Origin: Holosporales bacterium
Lineage (GTDB): Bacteria > Pseudomonadota > Alphaproteobacteria > Caedimonadales > Caedimonadaceae
Direction: 5' to 3'
DNA length: 24,000 bases
NCBI GenBank assembly: GCA_046318415.1
Contig: JBKCUK010000009.1
Span: 71,464 to 95,463, forward strand
Shown: positions 3-24,000 of the stretch, one piece after another
How the letters are laid out: each line of letters begins with the position of its first letter
Numbering within the stretch: the stretch's first letter is position 1
Position numbers and translations under genes: made by a program
Notes under the pieces: generated by a model
Database searches by the model: none
What the model was told of the DNA's origin: nothing
What the model saw: the letters and a program-made list of their open reading frames with translations, nothing else

Positions 3-131
3 CCTAAAAAGCGGGCAGCCAAAGAATTAAGAACTGAATTAGATAAGCTGAGCGCATCCTTGGTAACGGCCGATAGCAAAACCCTCAAAGCGCTGATTGC
101 GCAATGGGTTCCCCATTACAAACCCAATTAA
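3..131 (+). CDS. 3' end (42 codons + stop) of a gene entering from upstream of the window: PKKRAAKELRTELDKLSASLVTADSKTLKALIAQWVPHYKPN*. Possibly the C-terminal tail of a CapD/WbpM-type polysaccharide-biosynthesis nucleotide-sugar dehydratase.
   Basis: My own translation: frame 3 is open from the window edge to TAA at 129-131, and a strong hairpin terminator follows within ~10 nt. The ORF track omits it because it has no start in the window. The product guess rests only on remembered resemblance of the '...ALIxxWVPxYKP' tail to CapD-like proteins. Confidence 0.4.
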   Translation, partial: PKKRAAKELRTELDKLSASLVTADSKTLKALIAQWVPHYKPN

Positions 132-138
132 AGCCCAC

Positions 139-166
139 AAAAAAACCGCCCCGAAGGGCGGTTTGA
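139..166. terminator. Bidirectional intrinsic terminator between two convergent genes
   Basis: The hairpin is ccgccc (146-151), loop cgaa, gggcgg (156-161), extended by A-run 139-145 pairing with ttt 162-164. On the minus strand it reads aaaccgcccttcggggcgg followed by a 7-T run, about 30 nt after the stop of the 194..1612 gene. On the plus strand it follows the TAA at 129-131. Confidence 0.8.
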
Positions 167-193: not shown

Positions 194-1612
194 TTAGGAC
201 CTGTTTGAGCTGGAACTGGAGCTAGAACCAGCATTGACGCCGCTGAAGTGATCAAAGAGATAGAGCTCATCCAGCTCTTCAAGATGCTCGTAAGTGCTCA
301 GCATTTGGTCCCTCATGTTTGAAAGACCCTCTCGTTGTATTCTGCCCTTGAAAGACTCAAACATGCTTCTCTCAGCAGCCGTTATGCCATACCCACTGTT
401 GCCATTCAGTGCCCAGTTCATGATTTGTACAGCACGCTGAACTTCGCCGATTTTCGCACCCCGCTTGAGGCCAAAATACATCAGCCATCGGTCAAACATC
501 ACCTTGGTTTGAGGATCATTTTTAAGTTTGATCCGTTTCTGCTTTTGTTCAGCACTAAGATCCAAGTCTTCATCCTCCGCAGCAGCACGCACAGCCGTAC
601 TAGAGCTAGAGCTGGAAACTTGAGGTAGTGCACTAGAGGCAGCCCCTACCCGACCCGGGTTTGCATTCTGAGGTACAGCATGAGATACAGCGGCCAACCG
701 ATCCAAGAAGCCCAATACCTTGAGTTCAAGGAGCTGATTATAAAATGATTTGACATCTTGCGACAAGGTTCGACGAGTCAATTCTTTGAACGTTTTACGT
801 TGGCTTTCCATAAACTCAGACGTGAGCCCAAAAGGGATATTCCTATTCTGATGCTGACGCCTTGCATCCCGGAGCCAATCTTGCAGCTTGCTCTCTGCAA
901 TATAATTGAGACTCAGCTGCCATTGTTTCGCGCATCTGTCCTCTTCAGTGTTCAACCACCCAAGCGGCGCCTCATTGAGGGCAGTTAGGATGAGGGCATA
1001 GCGGTTCTTGATTTGATCGAGGCTGGCAGTGGCAGACAGCTCAAATTCGTCAAGGAGTGTTTGAGAAGTATTCATCCAATAGGGATCATTGAAAATTGCT
1101 TGACGCCGCTGCATTTGCTGGGGCGTTAAATTCAAACCCTCGACATTGTTCCTGGAGCCGATGCTCACTGCACTTGAAGACGATGATGCCTGGGCAGACC
1201 TGGGTTGGTCTTGTAGATCCAGCAAACTCAGACGAATGGCGGCATCAAGCTCGGCGTCATCTTCTGTAATTTGAGCAGAAAATGTTGGGGCCATGGGTTC
1301 AGGGGCAGGCAAAAGAGAAGACACGGCGGCTTGAGCCGGAGCCGGAGCCAAAGGTTGCGCGCGCAGAGCGCTTTGTTCATGTGCACTCTCCAAAAGCGCA
1401 CGCTCCAGGGCATGCTGTTCTCTCTGGGCATAGTGTTGTTCTTCCAGGGCCCGCTTCGCCTGTTCGTAATTGTATTGAATTTGGCTTTGACGCAGAGCTT
1501 CCGCGAAATCAGCATCATCATTGATCTCAGAAGCAAAAACTGTCGTCGATGCCAATAAAGACATGCCCAGCATGACAGTTAATGAAAAACGCTTAATACT
1601 TAAGGACATCAT
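194..1612 (-). CDS. Exported modular protein of unknown function. Architecture: Sec-type signal peptide, three UIM-like motifs, poly-Ser linker, J-like module A, poly-Ser linker, J-like module B, poly-Ser tail.
   Basis: This is the 485-codon ORF 194..1651 in the track. The likely start is the ATGATG at 1612/1609 (a GGGG lies 4 nt upstream) rather than 1651, giving MMSLSIKRFSLTVMLGMSLLASTTVFA|SE. That has a basic n-region, a hydrophobic core and a V-F-A cleavage-type site. A terminator lies 30 nt downstream. I recognise no family, so the motif calls come from reading the translation. Confidence 0.75.
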   Translation of the reverse strand: MMSLSIKRFSLTVMLGMSLLASTTVFASEINDDADFAEALRQSQIQYNYEQAKRALEEQHYAQREQHALERALLESAHEQSALRAQPLAPAPAQAAVSSLLPAPEPMAPTFSAQITEDDAELDAAIRLSLLDLQDQPRSAQASSSSSAVSIGSRNNVEGLNLTPQQMQRRQAIFNDPYWMNTSQTLLDEFELSATASLDQIKNRYALILTALNEAPLGWLNTEEDRCAKQWQLSLNYIAESKLQDWLRDARRQHQNRNIPFGLTSEFMESQRKTFKELTRRTLSQDVKSFYNQLLELKVLGFLDRLAAVSHAVPQNANPGRVGAASSALPQVSSSSSSTAVRAAAEDEDLDLSAEQKQKRIKLKNDPQTKVMFDRWLMYFGLKRGAKIGEVQRAVQIMNWALNGNSGYGITAAERSMFESFKGRIQREGLSNMRDQMLSTYEHLEELDELYLFDHFSGVNAGSSSSSSSNRS

Positions 1613-2103
1613 CGACCCCATTAAAAAGTTAAAATAGACAAAATGACACATACCAAATCCATAAGCACAAAGTCAAGACAATAAGGGAATTTTTTATTAG
1701 GGTAAGACGTCTGGGATAAGAGCTTTGGCATATTCACTCTGCCTTCTGCGCCAACTGGTGAGCATAAAGGCATTTTTTCTCTGATTTTCAGTGAGATAAT
1801 AGGTGTGATTGAGCTTTTGATTCGCTCATCCCCATGAAGATGGAAGGAAGGAACCCTCTCCGTGCTGGGGTCCAACGTTGCTTTTGAAGGGCCTTTTAGG
1901 ATAATATTTGACAAAAAGTCTAATCGCGCAAAATGTGTGCGGTGCGATGGGGACCTCTTCCCCGCAGCCAGCAAAGCGAACCAATTTCCAGAGAATCAAT
2001 ATGGGGACATTCTCCTCAAAGTGCCAAAAAAGCTTTCTCTGTCGTCATCAGCATCGATCCAGACCCCTCAATGCAGATCTTTTGGCTGTGAGCCTACACT
2101 CAG

Positions 2104-7166: not shown

Positions 7167-7241
7167 TGGAGCGGGCGAAGGGATTTGAACCCTCGACCCC
7201 AACCTTGGCAAGGTTGTGCTCTACCCCTGAGCTACGCCCGC
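7167..7241 (-). tRNA. tRNA-Gly (anticodon GCC), CCA encoded
   Basis: The reverse complement reads GCGGGCGTAGCTCAGGGGTAGAGCACAACCTTGCCAAGGTTGGGGTCGAGGGTTCAAATCCCTTCGCCCGCTCCA. It has a 7-bp acceptor stem (GCGGGCG/CGCCCGC), a D-loop AGCTCAGGGGTAGAGC, and an anticodon stem CAACC/GGTTG with loop TTGCCAA. It also has a T-arm GGGTTCAAATCCC and a terminal CCA. Confidence 0.95.
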
Positions 7242-11258: not shown

Positions 11259-11930
11259 TTACGGTTGATTATGCACCAGATTGTCGCACCGAAGCGAGAC
11301 CTCGGTCAAGGCATCATGGATCCGCTTTTTATGGCCTTCTAGGGTTTCATCCTGCTGAAATGCCACCGGTTGCCCCACCGCCAAGACCCCTTTGCCATAG
11401 GGTAAGGCAAGGATAAAACGATCCCAAGAATGGAGAATTTTTGCACGATTGGTGGCATAAGCCACTGGAATCACATCCACCTTACCAAGGCGGGCAAGGG
11501 CCACGGTGCCGTCACTCACCTGATAACGAGGCCCCCTTGGACCATCGGGCGTAATCCCAACCGTCTCGCCCTTTTGCAGCAAACGCACCATGGCGCGAAG
11601 GGCCTGGGTTCCGCCTTTCTTGGTTGATCCTGCAACGGTGTGAATACCATAGTGACCAACGGTTTTGGCGATTAACTGCCCATCACGATGGGCTGAAATC
11701 AGCATATGAAACGGCCGTGAGTTCTGCCAAATAAAGCACCCCAGCAAAAGTCTATTGTGCCAAAAAGCAACAATAAAGGGTTTGTTCTCGCGCCAGTAAG
11801 CCTCGAAAATTTCTCGCCCTAAAAAGGTCCACTGGCTGCTGCGATAAACCCAGCCGATATAACCAGCAGCAAGCCGTGCAAACATGTCAATAACGCGCGG
11901 ATGACGCAGAATTTTCTTAAACAGCGCCAT
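11259..11930 (-). CDS. DUF374-family lysophospholipid acyltransferase-like protein
   Basis: Motifs FWHNRLL, SAHRDGQLIA and ITPDGPRGPRY match my memory of DUF374, which commonly sits between msbA and waaA. I chose the ATG at 11930 (MALFKKILRHP…, with GGGGAAG upstream) over the track's 12023 start. The 12023 start would run 107 nt into msbA, whereas the 11930 start overlaps the msbA stop by 14 nt. Confidence 0.8.
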   Translation of the reverse strand: MALFKKILRHPRVIDMFARLAAGYIGWVYRSSQWTFLGREIFEAYWRENKPFIVAFWHNRLLLGCFIWQNSRPFHMLISAHRDGQLIAKTVGHYGIHTVAGSTKKGGTQALRAMVRLLQKGETVGITPDGPRGPRYQVSDGTVALARLGKVDVIPVAYATNRAKILHSWDRFILALPYGKGVLAVGQPVAFQQDETLEGHKKRIHDALTEVSLRCDNLVHNQP

Positions 11931-13725
11931 CTTCCCCACTCTGTGGCGCTGGGGCAGCCAATTGCCCGCGACACAACTCTGCGTAGCGGGGCGATGAAAC
12001 CAACAGCTCTTCATGACGACCAAGGGCTACGATGCGGCCTTTATCCATCACCACAATCAGATCGGCTTCCTTCACAGTAGCCAACCGATGGGCAATAATC
12101 AGGGTGGTACGTCCCCGCTCAAGGGCGCGTAACGCTTGCTGAACCTTATGCTCGGATTCTGAATCCAAAGCTGAGGTGGGCTCATCCAAAAGCAAAATAG
12201 GCGCATTTTTTAACATGGCCCGCGCGATGGACAACCGCTGGCGCTGCCCCCCTGAAAGGCGCACGCCATGCTCGCCCACCCGGGTATCATACCCTTCAGG
12301 AAAATCCATAATAAAGTCATGGGCGGCCGCAGCCTTTGCCGCCGCCATGATGGCGTCATCGCTTACCTCTTCGCCGGGTAAGCCCATGGCGATGTTGGTG
12401 CGTATGGTTTCATCAAAAAGAATGACTTCTTGCGAGACCAAGGCGATATTCTTTCGCAAAGAGGCCAAAGACACCTCGCGAATGTCTTGACCATCAATGC
12501 GAATCGCACCCGAACCAACATCATAAAAGCGCGGAATTAAGTTGATGAGAGTGGACTTGCCAGCCCCACTGGCGCCCACAAAGGCCACCATGGCATGACC
12601 TGGTATCTGCAGCGACAAATCCGCCAAGACTTCGCCACCGCCCTCATACGAAAAGCATACATGGTCAAGGATGATCTCTCCCTTTGACACCTGTAGGGCG
12701 CGTGGCTGTGAGGCTTCTGTGATCTTTGGCTGCAAATCAAGCAAGGCAAAGACGCGACTGGCTGCGCCTAGTTGTTCTTGCAGGTTGGCATTCAGGTTGG
12801 TGAGGCGCTTTAAGGGCTCGTAGGCCAGCAGGAGGGCCGCAATGAAGGAGAAAAATGCGCCAGGACTTTGCTCACCCGCAATGACCTGTTGGCCACCATA
12901 AAGAATGACGATGGCAATGGCGACGCCACCTAAAAATTCCATTAACGGATGTCCTGCGGCTTTGGTGCGCACCGCTTTGACCGAGCGTTCAAATAAGCGC
13001 TCGACCACATCGGCGACGGCCCTCGACTGCACCCCCTCCAGCGCATAGGATTTAATCAAGCGCACACCCTGAAAGGCTTGGGTAAGGATAGAACTTAGAC
13101 CAGCCGTATCACTTTGAATGGTTTTGGCAGCCTTGCGCAGACGCCGGCCAATGCGCGCCACAGGCAGGATTGCCACCGGCAAGATCACGAAGGCACACGT
13201 GGCCAGCAATGCATCCTGGTAAAACATCAGCGCCACAAACGCGATCAGGGTGAGACTATCCTTACAAATATTCGTCAGCGTCCCCGTCACGGCGTTATGA
13301 AGCTTCGTCACGTCGTTGGTAAAGCGGGAAACCAGATCCCCGGACGGGGTGCGGTGATAAAAGGCAAGATCTGCGTGCACGATGTGATCAAATAAGTCAC
13401 GCTGAATGTTGGCGATCATGCGCTGTCCCACAGCACTCATGATCACCGTTTCGCCATAGGTGGCCAAACCCTTGGTCAAAAACACAGCAAACACCCCAAA
13501 TGTTGCCGGCAGCAACATGGACGCATTTTTGCCGATGAAAATGTCATTGATAATGGGCTCGATCAACTTTGCCGGACCCACAGAAGCCGCAGCCGCAATC
13601 AACATCAACAACACGCCCAAAAGCAAACGCCCCATATGGTGACGGGCATAAATGGAGAGGCGCTGAATCAGGCGCCAACCTTCGCCCACCGTTGGCTTTG
13701 GCTTAGAAGTTTTCTGCAACCGCAC
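11917..13725 (-). CDS. msbA: Lipid A export ABC transporter (fused permease/ATPase)
   Basis: The 602-aa product has an N-terminal six-TM ABC exporter domain. It carries Walker A GASGAGKST, the signature LSGGQRQR and Walker B ILLLDEPTSALD. The start is GTG at 13723-13725 with AAGGA upstream, and it heads the lipid A/Kdo gene string. Confidence 0.88.
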   Translation of the reverse strand: MRLQKTSKPKPTVGEGWRLIQRLSIYARHHMGRLLLGVLLMLIAAAASVGPAKLIEPIINDIFIGKNASMLLPATFGVFAVFLTKGLATYGETVIMSAVGQRMIANIQRDLFDHIVHADLAFYHRTPSGDLVSRFTNDVTKLHNAVTGTLTNICKDSLTLIAFVALMFYQDALLATCAFVILPVAILPVARIGRRLRKAAKTIQSDTAGLSSILTQAFQGVRLIKSYALEGVQSRAVADVVERLFERSVKAVRTKAAGHPLMEFLGGVAIAIVILYGGQQVIAGEQSPGAFFSFIAALLLAYEPLKRLTNLNANLQEQLGAASRVFALLDLQPKITEASQPRALQVSKGEIILDHVCFSYEGGGEVLADLSLQIPGHAMVAFVGASGAGKSTLINLIPRFYDVGSGAIRIDGQDIREVSLASLRKNIALVSQEVILFDETIRTNIAMGLPGEEVSDDAIMAAAKAAAAHDFIMDFPEGYDTRVGEHGVRLSGGQRQRLSIARAMLKNAPILLLDEPTSALDSESEHKVQQALRALERGRTTLIIAHRLATVKEADLIVVMDKGRIVALGRHEELLVSSPRYAELCRGQLAAPAPQSGEDGAV

Positions 13726-14856: not shown

Positions 14857-15285
14857 TTAGTGTTTGGTGGCTTTTTTTGCCATGTTTTTGGCTGTTTCCA
14901 TGCCTTCTTTCACATGTTCTTGCACATGACGTGCCAGCTCTTTTTGGGAAGAAACAATAACTTCACCCAATTCTTTGGCATGGCTCATGCCCCGTTCCAT
15001 GGCTTTTTTCATGCAATTGTTGTGGAGCTCCATGCCTTCCTCAAAGGATTTGCAGCTCATCATACCCCGCACGTGAGAGCCAGCCTCTTCCATCATTTCC
15101 CGCGCAAACTGCGCCTGCATGGTACCGATGGTCTTCAGGGCACTCATGGCTGCGCTTTGGGCGCTTTGGAAAGCCTCGATATTGCGCTTGTTTGCGGCCA
15201 TAACAGATTCCATATCCAGCTTTGGCATGGCATCGCGAAATGCATTGAATGGATGTTCGGATTTATTTTGAGATTGACCGGCCAT
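14857..15285 (-). CDS. Phasin-family (PHA granule-associated) protein, 142 aa, Met-rich
   Basis: The segment DMESVMAANKRNIEAFQSAQSAAMSALKTIGTMQAQFAREMMEE fits my memory of the phasin family pattern (…qkaNleal…). The ATG at 15283-15285 has a GGGGG SD 7 nt upstream. The gene has its own promoter-like and terminator-like signals. The longer antisense ORF 14860..15336 is rejected. Confidence 0.6.
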   Translation of the reverse strand: MAGQSQNKSEHPFNAFRDAMPKLDMESVMAANKRNIEAFQSAQSAAMSALKTIGTMQAQFAREMMEEAGSHVRGMMSCKSFEEGMELHNNCMKKAMERGMSHAKELGEVIVSSQKELARHVQEHVKEGMETAKNMAKKATKH

Positions 15286-15339
15286 AAGCTTACCCCCTTT
15301 GTACGATTTATTTGCCGCAGTCTTTCCTGCTTTTAATCA

Positions 15340-15435: not shown

Positions 15436-15993
15436 TTACTGCAAGATAGGTGCGCCAAATTTAAGGGCGCGATCAAGGGCCGCCATGGTTTTGGCCTGAT
15501 CTTCCGTCTCATCTTCGAGCCAGACAACGGTGGCATAAAGCAAAACAAGGCCAAGGGCTTGTTGCTGTACAAGACCATAGGGTCCTGTCGGGGTTAGGCC
15601 CGCTGCCTCTAGAGAAAGACCACTTGCGGTGTGCCCCACACAAAACAGCTGCGCAAAAAGGCCAGGTGAGCACCACAAGTCTTGCGCGAGACGCTTGACC
15701 GCATCTCGATAAGGATGCAGGGCATCAAAACGCGCCATCAATACTTCAAAAAGACGATCCTGAACGCTTTGCCCCTTTTCGGATTCCGGCAAACTTTGGG
15801 TACTGAGTTCATCAATGTACGCTCCACAGCGCGCTAGAGCTTGCTCGGGCGATTGCGCCCACAGCAACACCTCATCCAATGTCACGCCCAGGCGACCAGC
15901 AAGCGCCGTCAGGGTAAAACCGGACCATCCATCGCGACCGATCAACAGCAGGGTTGCCTCTGCAAATTTTCGCTCATTGCTGGGGTATGTCAT
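15436..15993 (-). CDS. COQ9-family / TetR-fold protein (185 aa)
   Basis: The N-terminus (ATLLLIGRDGWSGFTLTALAGRLGVTL) resembles the degenerate HTH of COQ9. The C-terminus (LLYATVVWLEDETEDQAKTMAALDRAL) fits the COQ9 'W..D.S.D...T..FLD.R' pattern. The ATG at 15993 overlaps the proC stop as ATGA. A genuine TetR regulator cannot be excluded. Confidence 0.55.
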   Translation of the reverse strand: MTYPSNERKFAEATLLLIGRDGWSGFTLTALAGRLGVTLDEVLLWAQSPEQALARCGAYIDELSTQSLPESEKGQSVQDRLFEVLMARFDALHPYRDAVKRLAQDLWCSPGLFAQLFCVGHTASGLSLEAAGLTPTGPYGLVQQQALGLVLLYATVVWLEDETEDQAKTMAALDRALKFGAPILQ

Positions 15994-23132: not shown

Positions 23133-23338
23133 ACTCTTTTCCTCCCTTTTTGAGTACCGCATGGACGGGGAGAGGAAGGCGGCTGTTTTTATTTTTTCTC
23201 AGTGACTGACTGCTACCTTTGACATCTTAAAACAGCTGCAAGGACACAGTTTGCGATTTCAACTGACCCAACACAAAACGCCCCTCACCTTCCTCTCCTC
23301 CATAGGATATGATTAGCCCATTAGGTAGGAGCATTCAT

Positions 23339-24000
23339 ATGATCCCTCGGCGCCCCCATTTGATTGGTATCCTTTTTATGCTGGCGTCCATGCTGACCTA
23401 TGCCTTTGTGAATGCTAGTGTTAAATCGGTGATCATGGATTATCCCGCCCCCCAAGTCCTGTTTTTTCGCTATGCGCCAGCCCTTATTCCCTATGTTTTT
23501 CTGATCCTCCACGCACGCCATGATCACCCCACCACCACATCCAACCTCAGATGGCATATGGGCAGTGCCTGCGTCAGTATCATCAGTCTTTGGGCCTTAT
23601 TCACTGCCCTTGGACGCCTGCCCCTGGCCGAGGTCACCGCCCTGACCTTTACCTCGGTTTTCTTTGTGGTTTTGCTGGCGGCTGGTTTTCTTAAAGAGCG
23701 GACGTCCCTTGGGAGCTGGATCGCCTTGGCGGTGGGCTTTGGGGGGGTGATGATCATGGTCAATCCACAGCATCACTTGTTGAATAAAAATGCCTTACTC
23801 TGCCTGATGGCTGCATTTGGAGATGCCGTAATCATGGTACTGGCGCGACGCCTCACACGACAGGAATCAAGCTTAACCGTGGTGTTCTACTTTGCCCTTT
23901 TTGGCGCCTTGATCACATCCCTATTCTTGCCGTTTGTGTGGCAGCGGCCGACCCTCCCCGATTTAGGTCTGCTGCTGTTTTTGGGTTTGGGGGGCGGTAT
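23339..24000 (+). CDS. EamA/DMT-superfamily transporter, 5' part (continues beyond the window)
   Basis: My own translation: ATG at 23339 with an AGGAG SD at 23327-23331, open to the window end. It begins MIPRRPHLIGILFMLASMLTYAFVNASVKSV…LPLAEVTALTFTSVFFVVLLAAGFLKERTSLGSWIALAVGFGGVMIMV…. It has several TM helices and the typical EamA repeat pattern. It is missing from the ORF track because it has no stop in the window. Confidence 0.75.
   Translation, partial: MIPRRPHLIGILFMLASMLTYAFVNASVKSVIMDYPAPQVLFFRYAPALIPYVFLILHARHDHPTTTSNLRWHMGSACVSIISLWALFTALGRLPLAEVTALTFTSVFFVVLLAAGFLKERTSLGSWIALAVGFGGVMIMVNPQHHLLNKNALLCLMAAFGDAVIMVLARRLTRQESSLTVVFYFALFGALITSLFLPFVWQRPTLPDLGLLLFLGLGGG

Follow-up and report, generated by a model that had tools for sequence, protein, structure and literature searches.

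A 24,000-nucleotide stretch of the Holosporales bacterium assembly GCA_046318415.1 (contig JBKCUK010000009.1, positions 71,464–95,463; hereafter the window) encodes an orphan protein of 472 amino acids, at 194..1612 on the minus strand, whose sequence points to one credible ubiquitin-interacting motif (UIM) accompanied by two weak, core-only matches, and not to three tandem UIMs. The likeliest single reading of this protein, a plausible and unproven one to which we would give rather less than an even chance, is that of a host-facing ubiquitin-binding adaptor or decoy; chance resemblance is about equally likely. The product begins at M14 of a maximal open reading frame (ORF), 194..1651(-), that is 485 amino acids in length, and the amino acid numbering used here follows this longer form. 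The protein opens with a predicted signal peptide and continues with a long helix that bears two degenerate UIM-like cores, after which come a Pro/Ala-rich linker, the UIM helix, a Ser-rich linker and two C-terminal domains, D1 and D2.

The UIM-like segments

UIMs follow the Hofmann–Falquet consensus X-Ac-Ac-Ac-X-Phi-X-X-Ala-Phi-X-X-Ser-X-X-Ac-X and are usually found on a short helix set in disordered linkers, several copies per protein being common (PMC8273247). The three segments singled out in a first-pass annotation of this DNA are indeed present in the 194..1651(-) translation at the positions it gave: core 1 (NDDADFAEALRQSQIQ, aa 44–59) at 1475..1522(-), core 2 (REQHALERALLESAHEQ, aa 77–93, with a weak acidic run) at 1373..1423(-) and motif 3, the best UIM candidate (TEDDAELDAAIRLSLLD = EDDAELDAAIRLSLLD, aa 129–145), at 1217..1267(-). 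By inspection, motif 3 satisfies seven of eight consensus positions (one Ac position is Ala, with extra acidic residues flanking) and motifs 1 and 2 satisfy six each, the invariant Phi, Ala, Phi and Ser being present in all three. Taken as a whole, the consensus is followed by motif 3 alone, with motifs 1 and 2 conforming loosely through the core hydrophobic-x-x-Ala-hydrophobic-x-x-Ser. A pattern DDA[DE]-Phi-x-x-A-Phi-R-x-S is common to motifs 1 and 3 (alignment P 0.03), and a degenerate unit in which the Ser is replaced by Gln (aa 62–75) lies between cores 1 and 2.

The structural setting was modelled with AlphaFold2 (AF2), run on the single sequence, giving a poor overall predicted local distance difference test score (pLDDT) of 48; residues of this model, P0001, are numbered as the ORF amino acid minus 13. 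Motif 3 is modelled as a short isolated helix (P0001 residues 119–131) between unstructured Pro/Ala-rich and Ser-rich linkers, as expected of a UIM, at a low local pLDDT of ~33–37. Cores 1 and 2 share one long and confidently modelled N-terminal α-helix (1358..1522(-), aa 44–98), with a pLDDT of 84–93 at P0001 residues 41–80 (ORF aa 54–93) and with helix modelled as far as ORF aa 95 (P0001 residue 82). The Pro/Ala-rich linker that follows (1268..1357(-), aa 99–128, QPLAPAPAQAAVSSLLPAPEPMAPTFSAQI) has a pLDDT of ~30–37 and is modelled without secondary structure. By inspection, neither the MIT-interacting motif nor UBAN (DFxxER) can be brought into register.

Profile scores and shuffled controls

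Because a very short model in a long protein is penalised by the filters of HMMER, the motifs were rescored as isolated fragments next to three authentic UIMs as controls. Treated in this way, motif 3 matches the Pfam model PF23625 (UIM_2) with 16.5 bits (E 0.0086), and with 12.2 bits inside a 114-aa fragment. The former score falls within the range of the control fragments on that model (16.0–19.1 bits, compared with 19.3–27.5 bits on PF02809). The Pfam UIM cut-off is 21 bits, but authentic control fragments also score below this (Vps27 UIM1 19.9 and Hrs 19.3 bits on PF02809, and all three controls on PF23625); for single motifs, then, this threshold does not decide the matter. When the motif-3 fragment was shuffled with its composition preserved, 0/10 shuffles matched a UIM model.

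We also built a position-specific scoring matrix (PSSM) from 19 UIM sequences, of which three were verified by Pfam fragment scan. True UIMs left out of the model score 15.2–41.6 bits on this scale, motif 3 scores 14.5, motif 2 scores 2.9 and motif 1 scores 1.4. Motif 3 nevertheless has the top score among the 25,330 six-frame 20-mers of the window, and this one protein supplies four of the five highest-scoring 20-mers of the six frames. Against composition-matched shuffles, motif 3 has a P of 0.003–0.005; the next two sites of the N-region have P values of 0.02 and 0.004, and the sum of the top three has 0.002. Shuffles scored by regular-expression counts gave similar values. Statistical support for the candidate UIM signal is real, then, without being overwhelming.

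Export signal and search for relatives

The Sec signal read from the translation in the first-pass annotation is supported by inspection. The predicted signal peptide (1532..1612(-), aa 14–40, MMSLSIKR / FSLTVMLGMSLLASTTVFA) has K20 and R21 preceding a 19-residue hydrophobic core (aa 22–40; mean Kyte–Doolittle 1.67), more hydrophobic than any other 19-mer in the protein, and the predicted cleavage site, VFA|SE, has V at −3 and A at −1.

Database searches returned little beyond the protein itself. A word-indexed search of 5.8 billion clustered proteins found only the query, and phmmer against 1.84 billion representatives found the query and a sub-threshold match, P0002, an Ala/Thr/Ser-rich repeat protein aligned across the Ser-rich linker that we judged to be low-complexity noise. 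No relatives were found in GTDB genomes or JGI metagenomes, and searches with the N-region and with a D1/D2 profile gave nothing at E≤10. Queried against PDB sequences, the N-region, the D1/D2 profile and the cores of D1 and D2 returned chance-level matches only, and the whole protein gave nothing meaningful against Pfam and NCBIfam (INT10 at E 0.05, a thiopeptide precursor at E 3.7). A synteny search with the neighbouring glutamate dehydrogenase did not find a close genome. The first-pass annotation had said that homologues widespread in free-living bacteria and with a known periplasmic role would speak against its claim; homologues were found neither there nor elsewhere, and none of the outcomes that it listed as refuting the claim came about outright.

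The C-terminal domains

The C-terminal half of the protein is a duplicated helical domain without detectable relatives. D1 (674..1141(-), aa 171–326) and its paralogue D2 (227..571(-), aa 361–475) can be aligned without gaps over 56 residues (score 56, shuffle P 0.0015; MAFFT identity 28%), and the alignment resumes after an insertion of 43 residues in D1. Each copy starts L-[ND]-L-[TS]-x-x-Q-x-Q-[KR]-R...N-D-P. In the AF2 model the C-terminal half is all-helical, D1 being modelled at low confidence; D2 folded with D1 as an alignment row reaches a pLDDT of 65.6 and a predicted template modelling score (pTM) of 0.60, as a bundle of five main helices. D1 has no match in Pfam, in NCBIfam or among PDB sequences, and Foldseek comparison of the D2 model with the PDB gave nothing significant, the best E values being 0.6–8, mostly with J-domains. 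Within the insertion specific to D1 there is a fourth UIM-like site (890–949(-), TEEDRCAKQWQLSLNYIAES, aa 235–254; PSSM 8.8 bits) in which Gln replaces the essential Ala.

Host context and comparison with known systems

NCBI labels the protein and two neighbouring proteins as belonging to a 'Holosporales bacterium', records that derive from a metagenome-assembled genome (MAG) and agree with the host-associated alphaproteobacterial source that had been guessed from the DNA alone. The order Holosporales is obligately host-associated, and a 2025 review describes it as a large and ancient group of obligate protist symbionts whose interaction mechanisms are "still poorly understood", with no experimental data on secreted molecules (PMC11909080). 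Label and order-level biology together place the producer in or on a eukaryotic host (PMC11909080). The proteins of a symbiont free in the host cytoplasm or nucleus that are surface-exposed or released face host ubiquitin directly.

Compared with eukaryotic UIM proteins (S5a/Rpn10, Vps27, Hrs, STAM, epsins, ataxin-3, RAP80 and USP25), motif 3 has its acidic run, its Leu, Ala, Ile and Ser and its last acidic residue in register. Its core, A-I-x-L-S-L, is that of STAM, Vps27 UIM2 and USP25. Like these UIMs, motif 3 is modelled on a short helix with a disordered linker to either side, and multiple copies per protein are a further likeness (PMC8273247). Unlike the eukaryotic proteins, ours is bacterial, stands behind a Sec signal peptide, lacks VHS, ENTH, VWA, Josephin and USP domains, and has its best motif under the Pfam thresholds with PF02809 unmatched. 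Cores 1 and 2 are much more degenerate than tandem eukaryotic UIMs, and their Ser-to-Ser spacing of 33 residues on one continuous helix differs from the arrangement in RAP80, where the spacing is ~25 residues.

The nearest bacterial parallels in function come from Mycobacterium tuberculosis, in which PtpA, through a UIM-like region, and the surface-exposed Rv1468c/PE_PGRS29, through a UBA domain, capture host ubiquitin non-covalently by means of a eukaryote-like module (PMC5048167, PMC6488588). These proteins belong to another phylum, use another export route and have no sequence relationship to ours; their ubiquitin binding is experimental, whereas here it is predicted from sequence. Closer to hand taxonomically are two lineage-specific proteins of Holospora obtusa, from the same order: PRP1, a periplasmic protein of 63 kDa that has a putative signal peptide, and an 89-kDa protein of the invasion tip (PMC9866348). 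Both are stored in the periplasm and then released or exposed to the host, PRP1 into the host nucleus, and bear eukaryote-directed motifs, DNA-binding and actin-binding, the 89-kDa protein exposing motifs of the latter kind (PMC9866348). The differences are that there is no detectable homology, that the proposed target in our case is ubiquitin and that the MAG is not known to have the Holospora infectious form with its enlarged periplasm. The first-pass annotation had held the Sec signal to be a caveat to an effector role; that caveat is weaker than feared, given the precedent of PRP1 (PMC9866348).

Two proteins are relevant to the C-terminal domains. DNAJB2/HSJ1 consists of a J-domain plus two UIMs, so that a combination of UIM and J-like domain may be common to the two proteins, with the domain order reversed and the His-Pro-Asp (HPD) motif absent in ours. 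HopI1 of Pseudomonas syringae, an effector with a J-domain, provides a bacterial precedent.

Proposed function and alternative explanations

As a host-facing ubiquitin-binding adaptor or decoy, this lineage-specific, Sec-exported, modular protein of a Holosporales symbiont would, after export, be displayed on the symbiont surface or released, with outer-membrane vesicles, a type II-like pathway or lysis as possible routes. It would therefore come into contact with the cytoplasm or nucleoplasm of the host, where the UIM at aa 129–145 would bind the Ile44 patch of host ubiquitin through L135, A138, I139 and S142 and the flanking acidic residues, and the two weak cores on the preceding helix might add avidity for polyubiquitin or for multi-ubiquitylated proteins; the UIM-docking site of ATG8-type ubiquitin-like proteins is an alternative partner. 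The duplicated C-terminal domains would supply a second activity or binding partner, of unspecified nature, and the protein would serve as adaptor or decoy where host cells coat intracellular bacteria with ubiquitin. The setting speaks for a role towards the host: a predicted Sec-type signal peptide, an obligately host-associated lineage and a modular build whose linkers are modelled as disordered.

Set against this is the explanation by chance, to which we likewise give somewhat under an even chance: an orphan periplasmic or envelope protein with a purely bacterial role, structural or otherwise, whose acidic helices are rich in Ala, Leu, Ser and Gln, has come upon Phi-x-x-A-Phi-x-x-S by accident and has no dealings with ubiquitin. 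A number of results weigh on this side and against ubiquitin binding. The whole protein has no UIM match in Pfam at E≤10; motif 3 is matched only as a fragment, by one of the two Pfam UIM models and below the 21-bit cut-off, with PF02809 unmatched; and motifs 1 and 2 are matched by neither model at E≤10, whether as fragments or within the 114-aa N-region. On the PSSM, all true UIMs outscore the three segments, the weakest of them by a narrow margin over motif 3 and by a wide one over motifs 1 and 2. By exact calculation, a match of at least 14.5 bits is expected 0.26 times in a small proteome of ordinary composition (400,000 aa) and in 0.35% of proteins with the Glu/Asp/Ala/Leu/Ser-rich composition of this one, whilst 40–70 matches as good as those of motifs 1 and 2 are expected per proteome. 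That the fourth site (aa 235–254, 8.8 bits) is a near-match without the essential Ala indicates that this sequence readily yields such near-matches. The lack of homologues rules out arguments from conservation and covariation for the motif. As to location, the predicted Sec signal takes the protein to the periplasm only, which is by default its place of residence, and passage of the outer membrane is assumed; the type VI system, the main candidate delivery route in Holosporales (PMC11909080), does not use Sec substrates, so the signal misfits that route too. The gene is flanked, moreover, by envelope genes, those for lipid A on one side and those for O-antigen or capsule on the other. The explanation by chance has to contend with three sites in 110 residues that beat composition-matched shuffles (P 0.002 for the top-three sum), with a motif 3 that combines the commonest UIM core, an acidic run and an acidic residue at +3, and with a modular, linker-rich build in a host-restricted lineage, which raises the prior for host-directed motif mimicry. 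Of the three tandem UIMs first proposed, then, motif 3 stands, with sub-threshold profile support as a fragment, and motifs 1 and 2 do not; to call motif 3 a textbook match was an overstatement. The profile check put forward in the first-pass annotation came out divided, with PF23625 matching the motif-3 fragment and no UIM model matching the whole protein.

Two further explanations turn on the C-terminal domains. The first would make the protein an adaptor like HSJ1/DNAJB2, with D1 and D2 as degenerate J-like domains without His-Pro-Asp that, together with the UIMs, link ubiquitylated host proteins to host Hsp70. We consider this unlikely. The idea was prompted by the sequence pattern and predates every structure search, and an unbiased Foldseek search with D2 then drew about half of its top 50 PDB matches from J-domains. 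An alignment with hhalign of D1 and D2 to five J-domains covers 22 columns in the region of helices I–II (P 0.003), and a hidden Markov model of our own for J-domains gives, as a single comparison, E 0.004–0.03 (2–3 bits) with a collinear FKEL/FKEI match. The same searches furnish the objections: the hhalign probability is 10%, none of the Foldseek matches is significant (E 0.6–8, template modelling score ~0.22, root mean square deviation 6–12 Å) and the D2 model underlying them is itself only moderately confident (pLDDT 65.6). The Pfam DnaJ model (PF00226) matches no fragment, phmmer against the PDB returns no J-domain, and the position of HPD, the defining catalytic motif between helices II and III, is taken by NEA in D1 and NGN in D2. 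Membership of the J-domain family is not supported by these results, and the resemblance is suggestive, a lead and not a finding. Less probable again is an elaboration in which the protein, exported by Sec from the bacterium, mimics a eukaryotic ubiquitin–chaperone adaptor: its tandem UIM array would capture polyubiquitylated host proteins or the ubiquitin coat of the symbiont, and its two HPD-less J-like domains would engage host Hsp70 without activating it, stalling ubiquitin-dependent clearance of a protist endosymbiont. The least probable explanation of all is a periplasmic chaperone of the Spy/CpxP/ZraP type. Each C-terminal domain opens with an LTxxQ-like motif (LNLTPQQMQ and LDLSAEQKQ), locally like the 'LNLTDAQKQQ' of Spy, and has a second L/I-T-x-x motif; the domains are all-helical, 115–156 aa in length, and lie behind a Sec signal, and hhalign aligns the first motif over 17 columns. 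That alignment has P 0.048 and a probability of 1.1%, however, and the PDB sequence searches and Foldseek return neither Spy nor CpxP. With the LTXXQ model (PF07813), Spy control fragments score 29.4 and 23.4 bits and none of the four corresponding fragments of our protein matches (0/4), by which this explanation is largely refuted.

The gene and its surroundings

The gene is a real one and forms its own transcription unit. The 472-aa product is identical to MFN7710022.1 and MFN9001389.1, both recorded by NCBI as 'hypothetical protein [Holosporales bacterium]', and the same gene, identical in sequence, is found on two independent Logan assemblies (SRR31514666 and SRR31514667); an exact look-up found the 485-aa form on record and not the 472-aa form. 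A GGGG run resembling a Shine–Dalgarno sequence can be seen just 5' of the ATGs of M14 and M15. The stop codon is at 194–196, and ~30 nt past it is an intrinsic terminator hairpin (143..164(-); AAACCGCCC-TTCG-GGGCGGTTT followed by a T-run) that probably serves also the convergent gene, whose 3' end is at 3–128(+) and which encodes a 661-aa Polysacc_synt_2 protein. Upstream on the same strand is the gene for a 1610-aa NAD-glutamate dehydrogenase (gdh). Between the gdh stop codon and the gene is a gene-free interval of 536 bp (1652–2186) with a G+C content of ~0.47–0.48, compared with ~0.53 elsewhere; a promoter scan found nothing convincing immediately 5' of the start. Flanking inverted or direct repeats, the signature of a mobile element, were looked for around the gene and none was found.

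At third codon positions the gene has a G+C content of 0.49, the minimum for the window, where the other genes have 0.52–0.61. The remaining genes are housekeeping genes (lipid A genes, msbA, trmB, proC, lgt, fabI and sppA), and in this setting the orphan status of the gene, its lowest third-position G+C and its own terminator fit a fast-evolving accessory gene amid housekeeping genes. Past the left edge of the window, the contig (L001 7066–10782) carries genes for Polysacc_synt_2 (CapD-like), Wzy_C O-antigen ligase-like and EVE-domain proteins which, with the lipid A cluster in the window, embed the orphan gene among genes for cell-envelope biosynthesis.

Several other features of the window were recorded. 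The sole RNA gene is a tRNA-Gly(GCC) at 7167–7241(-), in the 772-bp gap between the start of gdh and an lpxL-like gene. Two ORFs, at 14860–15336(+) (158 aa, also of low G+C content, 0.48) and 15436–15993(-) (185 aa), go unmatched in Pfam at E≤0.01 and may be further lineage-specific genes. The maximal DUF374 ORF (11259–12023(-)), which starts with TTG, shares 107 nt with the 3' end of the msbA-like ABC transporter gene (11917–13725(-)), and its true start is probably further downstream than the TTG. At the right edge, a partial gene of the EamA family of drug/metabolite transporters (23306–23998(+); Pfam E 3e-19) runs out of the window and explains why the AT skew is so strongly negative over the last kilobase.

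Significance

If motif 3 arose by accident, the gene simply adds another to the orphan envelope proteins. If the UIM is functional, it offers a concrete candidate for Holosporales–host interaction, and a cheaply testable one, since ubiquitin binding of a peptide or fragment can be assayed with no culture of the organism. Should the improbable ubiquitin–chaperone mimic prove to be correct, the Holosporales would have in it their first host-interaction factor that is experimentally tractable. Ubiquitin binding, if true, would extend the non-covalent capture of ubiquitin by bacterial proteins, documented mainly in mycobacteria, to the endosymbionts of protists; the protein would join those bacterial proteins that mimic modules of the eukaryotic ubiquitin pathway and would give a rare testable handle on the interaction between Holosporales and their hosts.

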